Origin: Escherichia coli
GTDB lineage: Bacteria; Pseudomonadota; Gammaproteobacteria; Enterobacterales; Enterobacteriaceae
Reading direction: 5' to 3' (one strand)
Assembly: GCF_001677475.2 (NCBI RefSeq)
Contig: NZ_CP015229.1
DNA: 64,000 nucleotides
In this document: in pieces, positions 3,493 through 53,334 of the stretch
Layout: the number at the start of each line of letters is the position of its first letter
Numbering within the stretch: the stretch's first letter is position 1
Notes under the pieces: generated by a model
Told to the model about the DNA's origin: nothing
The model's input: only the letters and a program-made list of their open reading frames with translations
Database searches by the model: none
Position numbers and translations under genes: made by a program

Positions 3493-5643
3493 TTAGTGGT
3501 GCGAAGAGATCTTCACGCCGCCTTCCGGGATTGGAACGTACGGCGTTTCTTTGTCAGTACGTTTGTCGCTGTTACGCACCTTCAGCCAGGTTTTGAAACC
3601 GTAGAAGATGATGCTGTACACCACAATCAGGAACAGAATACTCAGGCCTGCGTTGGTGTAGTTGTTCACAACGATGTGGTTCATGTTGGCAATCTGCTGC
3701 GCCGTCAGGTCAGTACCGTTAGCAATCTTCTCTTTGTACTGGCTTGCCATGTAGAAGAAGCCTTCCATCTGCGGGTTGGTGCTGAACAGTTTCAGACCCA
3801 GCGCCCAGGTGGTGCAGATAAGCAGCCATACCGCCGGAACAACAGTTACCCAGATGTATTGGGTGCGCTTCATCTTAATCAGCACAACGGTGCCCAGAAC
3901 CAGCGCTACGGCTGCCAGCATCTGGTTGGAGATACCGAACAGCGGCCACAGGCTCTTAACGCCGCCCAGCGGATCGACCACGCCCTGATACAGCAGGTAG
4001 CCCCACAGACCCACACAGCCCGCTGTACCGATGATACCGGCAACCAGAGAGTCGGTTTTTTTCAGGAACGGGATGAAGTTACCCAGCAGGTCTTGCAGCA
4101 TAAAGCGGCCAGAACGGGTACCGGCATCCAGCGCGGTCAGGATGAACAGGGCTTCGAACAGGATACCGAAGTGATACCAGAAGCCCATGTCAGCCATCGG
4201 CAGCACTTTGTGGAATACATGAGCGATACCTACCGCCAGCGTCGGCGCACCACCTGCACGGTTCAGGACAGAAGGCTCACCAATGTCTTTCGCGGTTTGC
4301 AGGATCTGCTCTGGCGAAATCACGAAGCCCCAGGAGCTGACAGTCGCCGCCGCGTGTGCGGTAACGTCTTTCAGCTGCGCCATGATGATTGGCGCGTTCT
4401 CGCCACCCATTTCATGCAGGTTAGGCATGGTGATGCCGAGGCCAGCAGGCGGGGTGTTCATCGCGAAGTAAAGACCCGGTTCGATGATGGACGCAGCAAC
4501 CAGCGCCATAATCGCCACGAAGGACTCCATCAGCATTGCGCCGTAGCCGATGAAACGCGCATCGGTTTCGTTAGCCAGCAGTTTCGGCGTCGTACCGGAA
4601 GAGATCAGCGCGTGGAAGCCAGATACCGCACCACAGGCGATGGTGATGAACAGGAACGGGAACAGAGCGCCTTTCCACAGCGGGCCAGTACCATCAATGT
4701 ACTGAGTCATCGCAGGCATTTTCAGTTCCGGGTTCAGCACCACGATACCCAGCGCCAGGCCGACGATAACGCCGATTTTCAGGAAGGTTGCCAGATAGTC
4801 GCGCGGTGCGAGGATCAGCCACACCGGCAGCAGTGCGGAAACAAACGCATAGCCAATCAGCGCGAAGGTAATGGTGGTGTCTTTAAAGGTCAGTGCCGGA
4901 CCCCAGTACGGATCGTGAGCAATCACGCCACCGAAGTAGATAGAGGCAACCAGCAGCACGATACCAATGACAGAGACTTCACCTACACGCCCCGGACGAA
5001 TAAAGCGCATGTAGATACCCATAAACAGCGCAATCGGTACGGTTGAGCAAACGGTGAAGACACCCCACGGACTTTCGGCCAGGGCTTTAACCACAATCAG
5101 CGCCAGGACGGCAAGGATGATGATCATGATTAAGAAACAGCCAAACAGCGCGATAGTCCCCGGTACTGGTCCCATCTCTTCTTTGATCATCTCACCGAGA
5201 GATGCGCCGTTACGGCGAGAGGAGATAAACAGCACCATAAAGTCCTGTACCGCACCGGCCAGCACTACCCCCGCCAGCAGCCACAGCGTGCCAGGCAGGT
5301 AGCCCATCTGCGCGGCGAGCACCGGACCAACCAGCGGACCGGCACCGGCGATAGCGGCGAAGTGGTGACCAAACAACACGTAACGGTTGGTCGGAACGTA
5401 GTTCAGACCGTCGTTGTTAATAACCGCAGGCGTCGCGCGCGTGGGGTCGAGTTTCATCACCTTCTGGGCGATGTACAGACTGTAGTAGCGATACGCCACC
5501 AGATACACCGACACAGAGGCGACCACGATCCACAGGGCGCTGACGTGCTCCCCCCGACGTAATGCAACTACCGCGAGGCAGAATGCACCGATGATTCCGA
5601 GAATCACCCAGGGTATGTGCTTGAATAGTTTTTTCGTATCCAT
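3493..5643 (-). CDS. btsT: Pyruvate/proton symporter BtsT (CstA family; YjiY)
   Basis: ORF track 3493..5658, 721 aa polytopic protein; start likely at [16 protein letters not shown]. Confidence 0.9.
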
Positions 5644-47204: not shown

Positions 47205-48200
47205 GTGACCGTGAGAGCACTACTGACCCCTGAAATTGCCCCGCGTATGGGGATCGTATTGTTCAGGCCAGGTTCAGAGCTGATGCCCCTGTTTATGCAG
47301 GGGCGTGTCCTGCTGGAGCCTGAGCCGGAACGTTATTCATCTTTCGCCAGTGGTGCCGTTCCGGCGGCATCACAACCGCTGGCGGATGATCCTGCCGTTC
47401 GGGCCGTGTTCCGCAATGAGGCAGTGATCCGTCGTGCTGGTGGCGTGGAATGTCTTGAAAGCTGGTTACTTCGTGAAAAGGGCTGTCAGTGGCCTCATTC
47501 CGACTGGCACAGCGAGAACATGACCACAATGCGACACGCGCCGGGCGCAATCCGTCTGTGTTGGCACTGCGATAACCAGTTGCGTGATCAGTTCACGGAA
47601 CGGCTGGAATCAATGGCAACGGATAACTGTGCCCGCTGGGTGTTATCTGTCGTGCGTCGGGATCTCGGTTTTGATGACAGTCACGTAGTGACAATGCCGG
47701 AACTGTGCTGGTGGCTGGTTCGTAATGACCTGGCGGATGCCTTACCGGAAAGTGCAGCCCGTAAGGCACTGAGATTACCGAAGCCTGTTGTGCCGTCTGT
47801 CACCCGGGAAAGTGACCTTGTGCCTTCGGTTCCTGCCACCAGCATCATCCAGGATAAAGCGAAAAAGGTGCTGGCGCTGAAAGTGGATCCGGAGTCGCCG
47901 GAGTCTTTTATGTTACGCCCAAAACGTCGCCGCTGGGTTAATGAAAAGTACACGCGCTGGGTTAAGACACAGCCGTGTGCATGTTGTGGAAAGCCCGCTG
48001 ATGATCCCCACCACCTGATAGGCCACGGTCAGGGTGGAATGGGTACAAAAGCGCATGACCTTTTTGTGTTGCCTTTGTGCAGAAAGCATCACGACGAGCT
48101 GCATGCGAATACCGTGGCATTTGAAGAGAATTATGGCTCCCAGCTGGAGCTGATATTTCGTTTTATCGATCGTGCGCTGGCAATAGGCGTACTGGCGTAA
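47205..48200 (+). CDS. DUF968-like prophage protein with C-terminal HNH-like zinc finger
   Basis: ORF track 331 aa; CACCGKPADDPHHLIGHGQGG...LCRKHHDELH; resembles YdfU-type proteins found next to Q. Confidence 0.55.
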   Translation: MTVRALLTPEIAPRMGIVLFRPGSELMPLFMQGRVLLEPEPERYSSFASGAVPAASQPLADDPAVRAVFRNEAVIRRAGGVECLESWLLREKGCQWPHSDWHSENMTTMRHAPGAIRLCWHCDNQLRDQFTERLESMATDNCARWVLSVVRRDLGFDDSHVVTMPELCWWLVRNDLADALPESAARKALRLPKPVVPSVTRESDLVPSVPATSIIQDKAKKVLALKVDPESPESFMLRPKRRRWVNEKYTRWVKTQPCACCGKPADDPHHLIGHGQGGMGTKAHDLFVLPLCRKHHDELHANTVAFEENYGSQLELIFRFIDRALAIGVLA

Positions 48201-48213
48201 GTGGAGAACGAGC

Positions 48214-48966
48214 ATGAACCTTGAAGCTTTACCAAAATATTACTCCCCAAAATCGCCAAAATTGAGTGATGACGCACCGGCGACAGGCTCGGGTGGTTTA
48301 ACAATAACAGATGTGATGGCTGCGCAGGGGATGGTGCAGTCGAAAGCTCCGCTTGGTTTTGCCTTATTCCTGGCAAAAGTTGGTGTTCAGGATCCTCAGT
48401 TTGCGATTGAAGGTCTGCTCAATTACGCGATGGCAATGGATAATCCGACATTGAACAAATTGAGTGAAGAAATCCGGTTACAGATCATCCCTTACCTTGT
48501 GAATTTTGCCTTTGCTGATTATTCCAGGTCTGCGGCAAGTAAGGCTCGCTGTGAGTATTGTGCTGGTACTGGATTTCATAATGTATTGCGCGAAGTGGTG
48601 AAACACTCCAGAAGCGGGGAATCTGTTATCAAGGAAGAGTGGGTGAAGGAACTATGTCAGCATTGCCATGGTAAGGGAGAAGTCAGCACAGCGTGCAGAG
48701 GGTGTAAGGGGAAAGGTATTGTCCTGGATGAAAAAAGAACCCGGCTTCATAGCACGCCTGTTTATAAGGTTTGTGGGCGTTGCAATGGAAACCGGTTTAG
48801 TCGTTTACCAACGACACTGGCGCGGTGTCATGTCCAGAAGCTGGTACCAGACCTGACGGATTATCAGTGGTACAAAGGATATGCAGATGTCATTGATAAA
48901 CTGGTTACAAAGTGCTGGCAGGAAGAAGCATATGCTGAGGTGCAATTAAGAAAAGTGACGAGATAA
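48214..48966 (+). CDS. Q: Late-gene antitermination protein Q (phage 82/Qin QuuQ type)
   Basis: ORF track 250 aa; zinc-finger repeats CEYCAGTG, CQHCHGKG, CRGCKGKG; immediately upstream of lysis module. Confidence 0.75.
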   Translation: MNLEALPKYYSPKSPKLSDDAPATGSGGLTITDVMAAQGMVQSKAPLGFALFLAKVGVQDPQFAIEGLLNYAMAMDNPTLNKLSEEIRLQIIPYLVNFAFADYSRSAASKARCEYCAGTGFHNVLREVVKHSRSGESVIKEEWVKELCQHCHGKGEVSTACRGCKGKGIVLDEKRTRLHSTPVYKVCGRCNGNRFSRLPTTLARCHVQKLVPDLTDYQWYKGYADVIDKLVTKCWQEEAYAEVQLRKVTR

Positions 48967-49111
48967 ATGATTTTCACCGAACGATGGCGACATAACGATT
49001 GTATTTTCTAAGGAAACGTGCAAAGAGTTTTCCAATGATGAGCCTTATATGCATACCGGTGGAAAATATCAATAAGCCGCGCAGAGTGGTTTTTTTGTGG
49101 ACATAAACTTT

Positions 49112-49155
49112 GTGCAGAACGGTAACCATTATGGTTGCCGTGAATGCAGTTTTTT
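49112..49155 (+). terminator. Putative tR'-like intrinsic terminator downstream of Q
   Basis: tgca-gaa-cggtaacca tta tggttgccg-tgaa-tgca hairpin followed by TTTTTTT. Confidence 0.5.
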
Positions 49156-49727
49156 TACATTGCTGGCTTTTTTAGATTTGTGTTAGTTATTGATATTAAC
49201 AAGAAGGGGAAAAGACATGCTAAAACGGCAGGATATGAAGGAAACGGTTATGCGTGAATGTTCCAGTGTGATTAACCATATCATCTGGAGAAGCCATCCT
49301 GATGCAGGGAAGAGGTAACAGTAACGCGCATCAATCAGGCTGCAAATAAATGGCTTACGCCGGAAATCTGGCTATCGATGTATTACCGGTTTGTTACCCA
49401 TGAAGAAAATTAAGGTGATAACGAAACTGATTTTATAGGTGTCTTGTCAGAGTGTTGCGATGAAACTTGTGTTGGCAGTGCAGGGAAAACAGTAGGATGA
49501 AAATTATAAATTGCTTTAAATTAGCTTGATTTTCCTCATGTTATGAGATATTTGTCTTATATTGCTGGTTAATTATGAAAATTTTTGTAAATCTACAGCA
49601 ATAAAATCCATATTAATTAAAGCACTAGATGCGTTTCTGATTTGTGCATGAAACATACATATCATAATGATTAATTGCATCTATAATTACAGATACAGCA
49701 TTGTGCTGTTAAAAAACTGGAGTCCCC

Positions 49728-49835
49728 ATGAATACATTATATGTAAGTGATTCAAATGAAAAATCTCATGACAGGAATAAAAACAATGAGGATAGTAAGG
49801 GTAAGGATAATAAAAAAGACAACCGGAAAGAGTAA
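49728..49835 (+). CDS. Candidate small hydrophilic protein (35 aa)
   Basis: Own reading: ATG with GGAG RBS, MNTLYVSDSNEKSHDRNKNNEDSKGKDNKKDNRKE; below ORF-track length cut-off. Confidence 0.3.
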   Translation: MNTLYVSDSNEKSHDRNKNNEDSKGKDNKKDNRKE

Positions 49836-49870
49836 ATAATCTTTCCTGCATAAAAATACTAGGGTGGAAT

Positions 49871-49990
49871 ATGTCAGAACATCCAGATTTTGATGACCGT
49901 AAGCCTGATGATGAGCCCGTTGAGCGTCCTGATGAGGGGCAACCATTGAACCCTTTTTCACCGGATGATAAAAGAGATCCTATTATTTAG
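49871..49990 (+). CDS. Candidate small acidic protein (39 aa)
   Basis: Own reading: ATG with GGGTGG RBS, MSEHPDFDDRKPDDEPVERPDEGQPLNPFSPDDKRDPII; followed by terminator. Confidence 0.3.
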   Translation: MSEHPDFDDRKPDDEPVERPDEGQPLNPFSPDDKRDPII

Positions 49991-50044
49991 ATATAGCAGA
50001 ATATAGCCGTTTAAAGTAGGTTGTGTTTTGTTGCTATCCTTAAA

Positions 50045-50069
50045 CCACCTCCACAGGAGGTGGTTTTTT
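50045..50069 (+). terminator. Intrinsic terminator
   Basis: ccacctcc-aca-ggaggtgg then TTTTTT. Confidence 0.7.
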
Positions 50070-50126
50070 ACTAATGGAACATTAATTGGCAGATGTGATT
50101 GTGTACAACTTATGGGAGGCTTAAGA

Positions 50127-50315
50127 TTATTTTCTGCCAATAATAAAACCAAGCGTTAACCCTATGCTTAGAGCAACCACCACGCTAGTCAGTGGATAAT
50201 TTCTAAATTTATCTTTAACGTTTTCTTTGCCTCCCTGCAAAGCATCGTCAGCACATGATGCATATTTTTTGACAGTATTAACTATTTCGTTTTCAGATTG
50301 ATTTGAAGTCATGTT
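50127..50315 (-). CDS. Small membrane-anchored protein with ElaB/DUF883-like C-terminal tail
   Basis: ORF track 50127..50411; internal ATG gives MTSNQSENEIVNTVKKYASCADDALQGGKENVKDKFRNYPLTSVVVALSIGLTLGFIIGRK. Confidence 0.4.
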   Translation of the reverse strand, partial: NMTSNQSENEIVNTVKKYASCADDALQGGKENVKDKFRNYPLTSVVVALSIGLTLGFIIGRK

Positions 50316-50765
50316 TGAAGTCCTGATGTTAAGTGGCTTTTTAATTATAGCAGATATGCTTTCAATGATAGGGCGGAGAGTTGTTATTGAGGTGATACTA
50401 TGACCACTCAATCAACATTACATAAAATGACGTTTACTCCTGTTTGGCACAGTAGCAGAATTTTGCTTCTGCTACTGAAGTCGCTTTAGCACTAGAATAT
50501 GCAGATGGATAAAGCAGTTCAGCGTATGTACTGCGTCATGCATATCGGTCTTGCAGATATGACGAGAAGGGGAGACAAGGTGTGTGTAATGTAGAAGTCT
50601 TTAAAGTGCTGTCTGGGATAACTCTATACTGAAGTGCAATTGATAAAAGTAACACGATAAAGGTTTTTCAATGAAGATGGTAACGTGATGCTTGCATTTT
50701 TCAAAAAATATGGATAAAATTTTTTCAACGATGGGCTTTGTATACCCGACGTTAAGAAAAAGTAG

Positions 50766-50788
50766 AAAACCCGCTGATGAGCGGGTTT
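50766..50788 (-). terminator. Hairpin terminator downstream of cspF-like gene
   Basis: aaacccgct-gatg-agcgggttt with T-rich flanks both sides. Confidence 0.5.
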
Positions 50789-51081
50789 TGTGCTTTAAAT
50801 GGGGCAATGGTAATGTTGAATCTCATCCCGGGACTCATGTCTGTTAACTTATTATTTAGCTGGTGACTTGGTTATTTGCCTGATGTTTAAAATGTTTTCT
50901 TCCAGTACAATGTCCCTAAACACAATGAGTCTGCTTATTATATTATTAGCAGAGCTATTACGGCCAAAGTACAGCATAAGCTTTTAAAGCCAGTCAACCA
51001 GTCATCAAGACAGACGGGGTTATTCATAAAAACTCTCCATGTGTGATCCGATGGGGCCTGAAATTAAAGCTTTAATATAGC

Positions 51082-51294
51082 TCATGAAAGGTAAACATTG
51101 GCAGCTGAAGGGCCACGCAGAGCATTTATCCGGCAAAATTCCACGCGTAATCCGGTGGTAATTTCTTCTGCATCGCGGAGATTGAGCGCTGAAACATGAA
51201 GCTGGACATCGATACGACCATCGGATGGGGTGATAAGACCCTTGCCGCTTTTGCCGTCAAAGGTTTTGACAATTCCTGTCATTTTACGGGACAA
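51082..51294 (-). CDS. cspF: Cold-shock-domain protein, CspF/CspH-like
   Basis: ORF track 70 aa; [37 protein letters not shown]... Confidence 0.8.
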
Positions 51295-51594
51295 AAAAAT
51301 TCCTTAATACTGATAACTTGGCGCACTATACACACGTTCCTGAAGAAAGCTATAGTTTTTTGATGGGGTTGAAGATGGCTGGATGTCTAAAATAAACATT
51401 GCTTCATATGTTCAACTATGCGTTAATGATTGCGTCGGTTTGAAGAACAGACGATATACGAAGTAGTTTACTAAAGCAGTTCTCATTTCAGGTGTTATTC
51501 ACTTATTCCTTCTTTGAGTCTCTCCAATTAAGTACGAAGTCGTTTCTGTTATACAAGCCATTTATGCCGAAAGGCTCAAGTTAAGGAATGTAGA

Positions 51595-51810
51595 ATGTCA
51601 AATAAAATGACTGGTTTAGTAAAATGGTTTAACGCTGATAAAGGTTTTGGCTTTATTTCTCCTGTTGATGGTAGTAAAGATGTGTTTGTGCATTTTTCTG
51701 CGATTCAGAATGATAATTTTCGAACCTTATTTGAAGGTCAAAAGGTTACCTTCTCTGTAGAGAGTGGTGCTAAAGGTCCTGCAGCAGCAAATGTCATAAT
51801 TACTGATTAA
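51595..51810 (+). CDS. cspB: Cold-shock protein, CspB-like
   Basis: ORF track 71 aa; [38 protein letters not shown]; divergent from cspF as in Qin. Confidence 0.85.
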
Positions 51811-52093
51811 AATTAATAGTTTGTCTGTATACGATAACGAAGAAGGCTGATGCCTGAGTGGAGATACAGACAGAGTGGTGAATATTGGATCTCTTTAATA
51901 AATAGTAAGGAGATCCAATACATGAAACAATGGCCAGCATATTTGGCAATAACTTAATCAGGAAAAGTATGCTAACCATTGTGGTGAAGTGCAGGTTTGC
52001 TGCATGAATAGTTTTACAGCAGAAGCTAACTGCTAGCATAGCAAAACAAAGTGCGTAAGTGGATGACTCCCACAAAAAGCACCACAATATTAA

Positions 52094-52116
52094 ACCCGCT
52101 CAGGCGGGTTTTTTAT
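52094..52116 (+). terminator. Intrinsic terminator after cspB
   Basis: acccgc-tcag-gcgggt followed by TTTTTT. Confidence 0.7.
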
Positions 52117-52173
52117 TATCTGCTTTAAATATGTTATTAAAATATAAAAAATACTTGTTACGAATAAAATCAA

Positions 52174-52344
52174 TCAAGCTACAGCTTTAAGATTTGTCTG
52201 GAATACTTTGTTGCAATGAGGGCAGATCAAAAGAGCACCTTTTTGTACTCTTGAAAAACTGTGTTCTGACTCTTGGGTGCAGTTTGGGCAGGAACATTTA
52301 ACGAGATAATTACGGCGTGATTTTGAGTCTTTACGTTCTGACAT
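52174..52344 (-). CDS. Hypothetical small zinc-ribbon protein
   Basis: ORF track 52174..52395; CSCPNC...CPHC cysteine pairs; start uncertain. Confidence 0.3.
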   Translation of the reverse strand: MSERKDSKSRRNYLVKCSCPNCTQESEHSFSRVQKGALLICPHCNKVFQTNLKAVA

Positions 52345-52562
52345 AGGCTTTTCCTGTATAAATGGCCGTATACAGTACACTAAATATGAAAACATATCTC
52401 GTATTATTATTTAATATATGATTTTCTTTTAAAATAATTACCCACATTTTTAATGTGTCTGTTTTTTAGCGCCGTTGAGAACAACGTTTGCTATAAAAAC
52501 TAACCCATAGACTCCGATCTTTTCAAACATATTGCACCATCTGTGTACATCGGGGTGAGGAT

Positions 52563-52778
52563 ATGAAATCAATGGATAAGTTAACAACAGGTATCGCCTA
52601 TGGCACATCGGCTGGTAATGCTGGTTTCTGGGCATTGCAGTTACTCGATAAAGTAACTCCGTCACAGTGGGCTGCAATCGGTGTGCTGGGTAGTCTGGTT
52701 TTTGGCCTGCTGACATATCTGACAAACCTTTATTTCAAGATTAAAGAAGACAGGCGTAAGGTTGCGAGAAGAGAGTAA
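52563..52778 (+). CDS. Phage holin (phage 21 S-type pinholin, EssQ/EssD-like) with dual-start motif
   Basis: ORF track 71 aa; [66 protein letters not shown]. Confidence 0.85.
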
Positions 52779-52782
52779 TCCA

Positions 52783-53334
52783 ATGACTCAAGACTATGAA
52801 CTGGTTGTGAAAGGAGTTCGCAATTTTGAGAATAAAGTGGCGGTAACTGTAGCCTTACGGGACAAAAAACACTTTGACGGTGAAATTTTTGACCTGGACA
52901 TCTCGCTGGACCGTGTTGAAGGTGCCGCGCTGGAGTTTTATGAGGCAGCAGCCAGAAGGAGCATCAGACAGGTCTTCCTGGATGTTGCTGCCGGGTTATG
53001 TGAAGGGGATGAGCAGTCGCCGGAAAAGCGCCCCATAATTTTAGAGGCGCAGAATGTGTGGATAACCTACAAAGGAAAGCTACCGGGAAGAATTACTGGT
53101 TCTCTGAAGACGCCACCGACGGCATTGCGGTCAGAAAAAGATGATATTGAATCGCCCATTGAAAAACTGGAGGGCAGCGTCGCTGATCTGAATAAAAAAT
53201 TGTCGGTGCTGATTCCTTCTGAAGATGAAAAAAAACGCCGCGATGAGCAGTTTGCGGCGTTTTACGATTATTGCATTGAAGTTACTCGCAGGAATTTTGT
53301 GAAGATTTTTGAGGAGGGTAAATCTCTTCAGTAA
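52783..53334 (+). CDS. Hypothetical protein inserted between holin and endolysin (183 aa)
   Basis: ORF track 52762..53334; ATG at 52783 just after holin stop; no recognised domain. Confidence 0.45.
   Translation: MTQDYELVVKGVRNFENKVAVTVALRDKKHFDGEIFDLDISLDRVEGAALEFYEAAARRSIRQVFLDVAAGLCEGDEQSPEKRPIILEAQNVWITYKGKLPGRITGSLKTPPTALRSEKDDIESPIEKLEGSVADLNKKLSVLIPSEDEKKRRDEQFAAFYDYCIEVTRRNFVKIFEEGKSLQ

Follow-up and report, generated by a model that had tools for sequence, protein, structure and literature searches.

The stretch between the antiterminator gene Q and the lysis genes of a lambdoid prophage raises the question of whether the genes found there belong to the Q-dependent late transcript or to the lysogen. 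We address this question for one prophage in a 64,000-nucleotide (nt) stretch of the Escherichia coli contig NZ_CP015229.1 (assembly GCF_001677475.2), hereafter the window, to which all coordinates refer unless another locus is named. Between 46 and 54 kb the window holds the late-control region of a Qin/SfV-type lambdoid prophage, where a DUF968 gene (47205-48200) and Q (48214-48966) are followed by an interval at 48967-51081 and then by cspF (minus strand), cspB, ynfU (minus strand), the holin gene essQ and the lysis genes. A first-pass annotation had placed this interval at the position where Shiga toxin (Stx) phages carry their toxin genes, and saw in it candidates for late- or stress-expressed prophage factors. 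We find that the interval is a recombination patchwork, not a single unit, in which dead phage fragments surround one small, self-contained three-gene cassette. The reading we favour, and consider reasonably probable, is that the patchwork combines a decayed copy of the late-control module (copy 1), a cassette moron of the stationary-phase or stress type that is expressed in the lysogen, and a second copy of the module that still works (copy 2).

The distance from Q to cspF is 2115 bp in the window, against 421 bp, ynfS included, in the Qin prophage of E. coli K-12, and in this respect the earlier view of a moron-type insert is borne out. K-12 aligns to window positions 47883-49050 at 88% identity and to 50603-52988 at 96%. 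Both window 48909-49050 and window 50603-50743 fall on one K-12 segment, i.e., the last ~60 bp of Q and the 84 bp downstream, therefore this segment is present twice in the window. Approximately half of the interval consists of gene relics. The deposited complete genomes of two phages, PhiR63_1 and HannyBb, are 99.7-100% identical to the window across the region, which suggests that the layout works in live phages and that late control is functional with it. The NCBI Prokaryotic Genome Annotation Pipeline (PGAP) annotates two genes inside the interval, for a hypothetical protein of 61 amino acids (aa) and a protein of 29 aa. In agreement with the earlier statement that stx and tRNA genes are absent, the interval holds no stx gene and its longest open reading frame (ORF) reaches at most 94 aa, while ARAGORN found no tRNA or tmRNA in it. 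The search for RNA genes that had been proposed was run with Rfam over 47-54 kb at E<=1, and returned the thermoregulator in the 5' untranslated region of cspB, which lies outside the interval, a chance snoRNA match and nothing else.

The Q gene (48214-48966, plus strand) encodes a 250-aa Q-lambda family protein (PF03589 in Pfam, E 4e-50; lambda Q, PDB 7UBM, E 2.5e-35) and is 97% identical in nucleotide sequence to SfV Q. PF03589 is the Q-lambda family, and a promoter, a sigma-dependent pause element and a terminator together form a Q late-regulatory cassette (PMC9388147). We aligned copies 1 and 2 with the late modules of K-12 Qin, SfV and phage Ayreon, and the family consensus runs from the Q stop codon through ~30 bp to TTGCAT, 17 bp, TAAGAT or TAAAAT, 6 bp, AACGATGGGC, and a GC-rich hairpin with a T-run. 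Copy 1 (48999-49042, plus strand), which adjoins Q, departs from this pattern. It reads TTGTAT-17-AAAGAG-6-AATGATGAG, where AACGATGGG would be expected; GGG is changed to GAG and the -10 is AAAGAG. Its -35 to -10 segment, in which the Q-binding element of lambda sits, has diverged to 67% identity with SfV PR', compared with 97% for the adjoining Q coding sequence, and a promoter scan called no promoter-like site there. This variant of copy 1 is confined to 39 E. coli genomes, all of which have the insert and copy 2 as well. The terminator described earlier as tR'-like does exist after Q as a hairpin (49074-49092; 7-bp stem with two G-U pairs) and a U-run, together at 49074-49099 on the plus strand, and its position matches the tR' of SfV, Ayreon and K-12. 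However, with a hairpin of about -7.8 kcal/mol and a 73-nt relic RNA folding at -10 kcal/mol (z +1.45), i.e., no better than shuffled sequence, it looks like the weak relic of a decayed PR' and not like a working tR'. A second and stronger intrinsic terminator follows Q at 49113-49156 (plus strand; -20.1 kcal/mol, z -2.4), where a stem is followed by U7.

Copy 2, which the first-pass annotation had missed (50692-50796 with its terminator), is intact. Its PR' (50692-50735, plus strand) consists of TTGCAT at 50692-50697, 17 bp, TAAAAT at 50715-50720, 6 bp and the pause element AACGATGGG at 50727-50735; it is identical to that of K-12 Qin, and its -35 to -10 segment matches SfV PR' at 28 of 29 positions (97%). 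The tR' that follows (50759-50796, plus strand) looks functional and is also called as a terminator on the opposite strand. The predicted RNA of ~70 nt from PR' to tR' folds at -30.4 kcal/mol (z -6.7), and none of 200 shuffled sequences folds equally well. The layout equals that of lambda PR' (TTGACT-17-TAAATT-6-AACGATGGG), so that a Q of the Q-lambda family, the same -35/17/-10/6/AACGATGGG spacing and a strong intrinsic terminator are shared with the lambda system. Because this Q is close to SfV Q, copy 2 is close to SfV PR', its RNA folds strongly and its layout is that of lambda, while copy 1 has diverged, copy 2 is probably the working PR'. Copy 1 would then be a fossil, and late transcription would start near 50727. 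The arrangement differs from lambda in that the module is duplicated, the copy beside Q has decayed and the working copy lies 1.7 kb from Q, past relics and a moron. The tR' here is also ~40-70 nt from the start site; in lambda this distance is 194 nt.

Two further features of the control genes were observed. Q carries an insertion of ~43 aa with DnaJ-type CxxCxGxG zinc-finger repeats (Pfam DnaJ_CXXCXGXG, 34.9 bits), and lambda Q (207 aa) aligns to it in two blocks flanking this insertion. The intact PR' is predicted to make a constitutive, structured RNA of ~70 nt ending at tR' (50727-50796), the sequence of which is identical in K-12 Qin and matched no Rfam family. In position it corresponds to lambda 6S RNA and to StxS, a regulatory small RNA in Stx lysogens (PMC7547250).

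The position of copy 2 bears directly on the first-pass placement of the interval. In Stx phages the toxin genes stand downstream of both PR' and tR' (PMC7547250), in the order Q, PR', tR', tRNAs, stxAB and lysis genes, and are Q-dependent. The cassette (49680-50353) shares with them the gross interval from Q to holin, but it stands upstream of the intact PR' at 50692. As such it is not in the Stx position, which here corresponds to ynfS, cspF, cspB and ynfU, and late expression of the cassette is unlikely.

The cassette itself (~49680-50353) consists of two convergent transcription units around one bidirectional terminator. On the plus strand, a predicted -10, TCTATAATTAC (49680-49690), precedes two small ORFs, each with its own ribosome-binding site (RBS), as the first-pass annotation had described. 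The first ORF (49728-49835; 35 aa; RBS GGAG at 49719-49722, 5 nt before the ATG) is basic, very hydrophilic and rich in K, N and D, with a grand average of hydropathy of -2.5 and an isoelectric point (pI) of 8.1. The second (49871-49990; 39 aa; RBS GGGTGG at 49862-49867) is acidic and proline-rich, with a net charge of -8, eight prolines and a pI of 4.1. Both products are probably disordered. The strong terminator reported after them was found at 50042-50069, where a hairpin with an 11-bp GC-rich stem (50042-50066) and a T6 run fold well on both strands (-17.7 kcal/mol on the plus and -18.5 kcal/mol on the minus strand). On the minus strand it is faced by a gene for a C-tail-anchored protein (50127-50312; PGAP coding sequence WP_000203370.1; phrog_11629, PHROG match E 5e-47), which had been given as 62 aa; the gene is present, with 62 codons including the stop, and its product is 61 aa long. 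Its predicted promoter (50341-50353, minus strand) reads TG-C-TATAAT-TAA, i.e., an extended -10 with -13C and a downstream TAA. The motif C-TAT..TTAA is invariant in three diverged lineages, 27-31 nt from the ATG of the 61-aa-type gene, in the form gCTATAATTAA, preceded by TG, in the window and aCTATACTTAA in two sister loci. The consensus of the sigma-S extended -10 is TCTATACTTAA (PMC3367168). Each unit of the cassette thus appears to have a promoter of its own that carries -13C and TATAAT(TAA) and is similar to sigma-S promoters. Of the two modes of expression suggested earlier, stress fits these sigma-S-like -10 boxes, while late expression fits poorly with a cassette outside the Q-dependent transcript.

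In its make-up the cassette is a moron, with conserved -10 boxes that predict its own promoters, a common terminator, a GC content of 25-40% as against 45-59% in the nearby Q and DUF968 genes, and variable presence; it is absent from K-12 Qin, SfV and Ayreon. It also occupies two different late-region sites in Escherichia and Enterobacter. It departs from other prophage morons in having two convergent units with one terminator, in lying between Q and PR' and not inside the late operon, and in that two of the three proteins it encodes, at 35-45 aa, fall into no known family.

A palindrome, ACAGCA-N3-TGCTGT (49695-49709, plus strand), lies at the predicted 5' end of the small-ORF RNA and forms a small hairpin of -7.5 kcal/mol. 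Its arms are identical in the Escherichia and Enterobacter cassettes (locus L009, ~4685-4699, minus strand) and the 3-nt loop differs; it could be a stabilising 5' hairpin or an operator. A LexA box was considered at this site and rejected, the half-sites being in the wrong order and at the wrong spacing relative to CTGT-N8-ACAG.

The evidence that the cassette is a real and conserved moron comes from its relatives. An exhaustive HMMER search with the 61-aa protein recovered, apart from repeat-protein noise, three short relatives only (64, 95 and 82 aa), and tblastn against phages gave only PhiR63_1 and HannyBb, which were already known. The block is rare in E. coli, being found in 39 of 5426 complete genomes, always at 99.5% identity or more. 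The gene for the 82-aa relative lies between Rz and Nu1 in a lambdoid prophage. It faces, across a bidirectional hairpin at the place matching that of the window terminator, an acidic ORF of 45 aa (MSGRPDFDD...EGQP...PDDKRD), which is preceded by a basic ORF of 41 aa. This cassette, hereafter the Enterobacter cassette, shares gene order, orientation, terminator, RBSs and -10 boxes with that of the window and differs in its prophage site. NCBI names the cluster of the basic ORF Enterobacter, and a pattern scan of 100,044 species-representative genomes gave a sole match, in Enterobacter wuhouensis. The acidic ORF led to 16 IMG/VR loci, and the basic ORF and the convergent tail-anchored gene are present in every one of them, which indicates that the three genes travel as a single module and provides the conservation in related prophages that had been named as a check on the small ORFs. 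An origin of both small ORFs from one larger, frameshifted gene was rejected, given that the Enterobacter cassette has two separate ORFs with their own RBSs.

Constraint on the three genes was seen at two depths. The two cassette types are far enough apart for synonymous sites to be half-saturated to saturated. Across this distance the acidic ORF keeps 59% amino-acid identity to its 45-aa counterpart with an in-frame 18-nt indel and a ratio of non-synonymous to synonymous substitution (dN/dS) of 0.34, and the basic ORF and the 61-aa gene show proportions of differing sites of 0.75-1.0 (synonymous, pS) versus 0.3-0.4 (nonsynonymous, pN), the values for the 61-aa gene being about 0.75 and about 0.4. 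The basic ORF is matched by the homologous 41-aa ORF at only 31% identity, its composition being kept more than its sequence. Conservation between the types covers start codons, RBSs and the -10 box and does not reach distal upstream DNA; the -10 of the small-ORF operon follows this pattern. Among ten distinct Enterobacter-type haplotypes, variable sites make up 2.2% of the acidic ORF (p 3.5e-4), 3.2% of the basic ORF (p 1.6e-3) and 6.8% of the 61-aa-type gene (p 0.023), where p is from Fisher's test against the 3' intergenic sequence with its 14.5%; distal upstream DNA reaches 33%. The small ORFs are therefore 4-7x less variable than flanking DNA. The changes in the acidic ORF are three synonymous and no nonsynonymous, the basic ORF has three nonsynonymous changes, one synonymous change and a 6-nt insertion that keeps the frame, and third codon positions are the most variable. 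From these patterns, coding is well supported for the 61-aa gene and for the acidic ORF, whereas for the basic ORF, which is constrained, it is less certain that the constraint acts on the protein. Neither small ORF gave anything usable in Pfam, NCBIfam, PHROGs or PADLOC, and when the 61-aa protein and the Enterobacter ORFs of 45 and 41 aa were used in word-indexed protein searches, each found its own cluster only.

A third lineage, with the 64-aa form of the tail-anchored protein, has no small ORFs. It is flanked by a small ORF with the motif NEWEDEGGA and, at several loci, by a gene for a universal stress protein (Usp; PF00582) just downstream. The NEWEDEGGA ORF (62-68 aa) adjoins both the Enterobacter cassette and the 64-aa lineage (L009 4939-5136, L033 1325-1522 and L008 307-495, all on the minus strand, and L020-L023) and belongs to no Pfam family; a WEDEGG ORF was looked for in the window and none was found.

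What might the tail-anchored protein be? Its sole hydrophobic stretch is at residues 41-59 (mean Kyte-Doolittle 2.19), residues 1-39 being hydrophilic (mean -1.11), so that it has a single C-terminal transmembrane (TM) segment and no N-terminal signal sequence, as a C-tail-anchored protein should. An AlphaFold2 model places helices at 4-38 and 40-60 with a break at 39-40 (P40). In an alignment of four lineages, P40, G55, G59 and a terminal G-R-(R/K) are invariant. The first-pass annotation had likened this anchor to ElaB/DUF883, and profile comparison agrees for the C-terminus: hhalign to ElaB/YqjD/YgaM gives a probability of 88.9% (E 2.4e-6) over the C-terminal 28 columns, whereas the best Pfam match, DUF883_C (PF19029), scores 12.3 bits (E 0.14), below the 27-bit cut-off. 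The features conserved in YqjD, ElaB and YgaM are a proline that breaks the helix and is followed by Trp, glycines within the TM and an RR at the C-terminus, and ribosome inactivation by YqjD requires its N-terminus as well as TM-mediated dimerisation (bioRxiv 2024.08.16.608256). With these stationary-phase, ribosome-inactivating inner-membrane proteins the 61-aa protein shares the lack of a signal peptide, the single C-terminal TM, the proline before it, the TM glycines, a terminal basic pair and a sigma-S-type -10, the last being the only sign of stationary-phase expression seen here. The terminal pair is RK in the window and RR in three sister lineages, and the residue after the proline is L, A, T or R in the four lineages, never W. 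The protein is also much shorter (61 aa versus 101-109 aa), its N-terminal DUF883 region is not detectable, and it is encoded by a prophage and, in two of three lineages, comes with two small hydrophilic ORFs. With hinge and anchor present, the protein is built like a YqjD/ElaB/YgaM anchor; we do not file it as a DUF883 (IPR010279) member, because it lacks the Trp and no N-terminal DUF883 domain was detected. A literature search returned nothing on WP_000203370.

We propose that these parts work as follows. Directly after Q stands a decayed late module of SfV type, then scraps of orf47, a methylase gene and ren, and then the cassette; beyond it come scraps of an antirepressor gene and of a second Q, the probably working PR' with its Q-binding spacer, AACGATGGG pause element and strong tR', and ynfS. 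Q-modified RNA polymerase would start at copy 2 and read into cspF/cspB/ynfU, the holin gene and the lysis genes, which would leave the cassette outside the Q-dependent late transcript. We read the cassette as a lysogen- or stress-type moron because its promoters are sigma-S-like, the orientation of the 61-aa gene is antisense, i.e., against phage rightward transcription, its position is outside the late transcript, and a sister lineage has a Usp neighbour. The 61-aa protein would have a cytoplasmic helix, a proline kink and a glycine-rich C-terminal membrane anchor ending in RK. More speculatively, it may insert tail-first into the inner membrane, dimerise through the glycine-rich helix and influence the stationary-phase physiology on which YqjD/ElaB/YgaM act, the co-inherited small proteins being possible partners.

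How well this holds depends on several alternatives, the first of which concerns transcription. If PR' of copy 1 still fired, with the terminator beside Q as the working tR', the cassette would sit in the late transcript, at the Stx position, and the small ORFs would be Q-dependent late genes. In copy 1 the -35 TTGTAT survives, as do a pause element resembling a -10 (AATGAT), a U7-tailed hairpin and a TG that lies one base upstream of the -10 position, and the SfV-like orf47 and methylase scraps flanking the cassette suggest that it probably entered downstream of the copy 1 module. Yet its -10 lacks a T at its last position, the promoter is where divergence concentrates, its RNA folds no better than shuffled sequence, no promoter was called and an intact cognate module lies downstream, all of which makes this scenario very improbable. 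We give slightly less credit still to the notion that everything between Q and PR', cassette included, is decaying junk. The relics that fill about half of the interval and the near-clonal state of the block in Escherichia (39 genomes, at least 99.5% identical) would suit it, but three genes that are intact in two lineages saturated at synonymous sites and less variable than their flanks, with promoters, RBSs and terminator kept, would not be expected of junk. It is unlikely, though less so than these two, that the small ORFs are untranslated and the plus-strand unit is a non-coding RNA or without function. The ORFs are short, of low complexity and lack both a PGAP annotation and a family in Pfam, NCBIfam or PHROGs, changes in the basic ORF are one synonymous to three nonsynonymous, and the conserved 5' palindrome could be an RNA element; set against this are start codons, RBSs and frames conserved across two diverged cassette types, indels that stay in frame (18 and 6 nt), a dN/dS of 0.34 and a 3:0 ratio of synonymous to nonsynonymous changes in the acidic ORF, third codon positions that vary most, and the absence of an Rfam match.

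For the 61-aa protein the choice is between functions. Small moron-encoded membrane proteins can block DNA entry, e.g., HK97 gp15, and the 61-aa protein, with or without the small proteins, might likewise serve in superinfection exclusion or another anti-phage role at the inner membrane, functionally unrelated to YqjD/ElaB/YgaM. A small single-pass membrane protein from a prophage moron with its own promoter, running against the lytic transcripts and varying in presence among related phages, would suit such a role. The cassette proteins of either type nevertheless have no match in PADLOC-DB v2 at E<=1, and the tail-anchor motif (Pro, Gly-rich TM, terminal RR/RK), the sigma-S-like -10 and the Usp gene beside the sister lineage resemble YqjD/ElaB/YgaM; we consider this role unlikely, if somewhat easier to credit than the other alternatives. 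A bolder proposal is that the protein is a phage-borne, minimal YqjD/ElaB/YgaM relative which has kept the dimerising, glycine-rich anchor and the hinge and lost the ribosome-binding N-terminus. Mixed dimers could then disable the host proteins, or its own helix could reach ribosomes, and the prophage would control ribosome hibernation in stationary-phase lysogens, with the small proteins as partners or regulators; this is a long shot.

The favoured reading, that of a lysogen-expressed moron between a dead and a working late module, also has points that weigh against it. The -35 of copy 2 is poor (TTGCAT, 3/6) and a consensus scan did not call this promoter, while copy 1 may retain residual activity. 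The comparisons show the anatomy of the interval, the doubling and decay of its promoter module, and the conservation, linkage and purifying constraint of the three genes; which promoter fires, sigma-S dependence, translation, membrane insertion and any function are all inferred from sequence, and the comparative sample is small, with only two or three lineages. For the basic ORF, low complexity, 31% identity and the 1:3 ratio of synonymous to nonsynonymous changes mean that constraint could be on RNA or DNA rather than protein. The AlphaFold2 model of the 61-aa protein has low confidence, with a predicted local distance difference test score of 68 from 4 sequences. DUF883_C is the best Pfam match in each of the four lineages and stays below the cut-off in all of them (11.8-17.0 bits in the sisters). 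The similarity to ElaB/YqjD/YgaM is confined to the 28 C-terminal columns, and the N-terminal DUF883 domain, which is needed for ribosome inactivation, gave no Pfam match even at E<=10.

The remainder of the interval is largely the relic half that, like ynfS, went unmentioned in the first-pass annotation. SfV-like sequence, as seen by blastn to SfV and Ayreon, extends to 49247 and takes in ten codons from the start of orf47. A chimeric relic ORF of 33 aa (49217-49318, plus strand) joins this orf47-like start, eight of whose first ten residues match orf47, to a 53-bp piece (49250-49302) of orf48, a DNA methylase gene (N6_N4_Mtase). It is followed by a fragment at 49367-49479 with 73-75% identity to sequences annotated as 'protein ren', i.e., lambda ren-like. 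On the far side of the cassette lies the frameshifted N-terminal relic of a Bro-N/P22 antirepressor-type gene (50388-50582, plus strand; Pfam Bro-N and P22_AR_C), 79.7% identical to the first part of a gene of 203 codons in phage IdasGreatGrand. Next to it is the relic 3' end of a second, Qin-like Q gene, stop codon included (50603-50660, plus strand), which is seen in the duplicate K-12 alignment.

The 29-aa protein annotated by PGAP (50938-51027, minus strand; WP_122993159.1) is a YnfS homologue with a hydrophobic C-terminus. It is identical to K-12 YnfS at 28 of 29 residues, falls into the same 90%-identity cluster and lies in the same place between cspF and PR'/Q, with no notable difference from K-12 beyond the one residue. 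YnfS has been detected in K-12 by SPA-tagging (PMC6001520). The gene lies a short way downstream of tR' and runs antisense to the late transcript. At 51082-52395, as in K-12 Qin, cspF (minus), cspB (plus; Rfam cspA thermoregulator, 159 bits) and ynfU (minus) would be the true cargo of the late transcript. Since the cold-shock genes lie on both strands, late transcription must run antisense through cspF, ynfS and ynfU. Beyond the holin gene the carriers of the block differ. The window (~52780-53334) and PhiR63_1 have a longer ydfR-family ORF, of 190 aa in the window, and in CFSAN004176 (L001 9817-10152) PGAP marks the ydfR-family gene at this place as a truncated pseudogene.

These results would correct the regulatory map of Qin/SfV-like prophages, in which the terminator beside Q would be a fossil and the real late promoter would lie 1.7 kb farther on. 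The genes between copies 1 and 2 would accordingly be lysogen genes, and not late cargo or cargo in the toxin position. The block is found in O121, O103 and O84 E. coli, which bears on how the Q-to-lysis regions of pathogenic strains are to be interpreted. The comparisons also define a small, portable three-gene module, in which they lend support to two unannotated proteins of 35-45 aa and to a minimal tail-anchored protein of YqjD/ElaB-like design. If the 61-aa protein touches host ribosome hibernation, it would be a new route by which a prophage shapes stationary-phase physiology; if it does not, it would be another uncharacterised moron.

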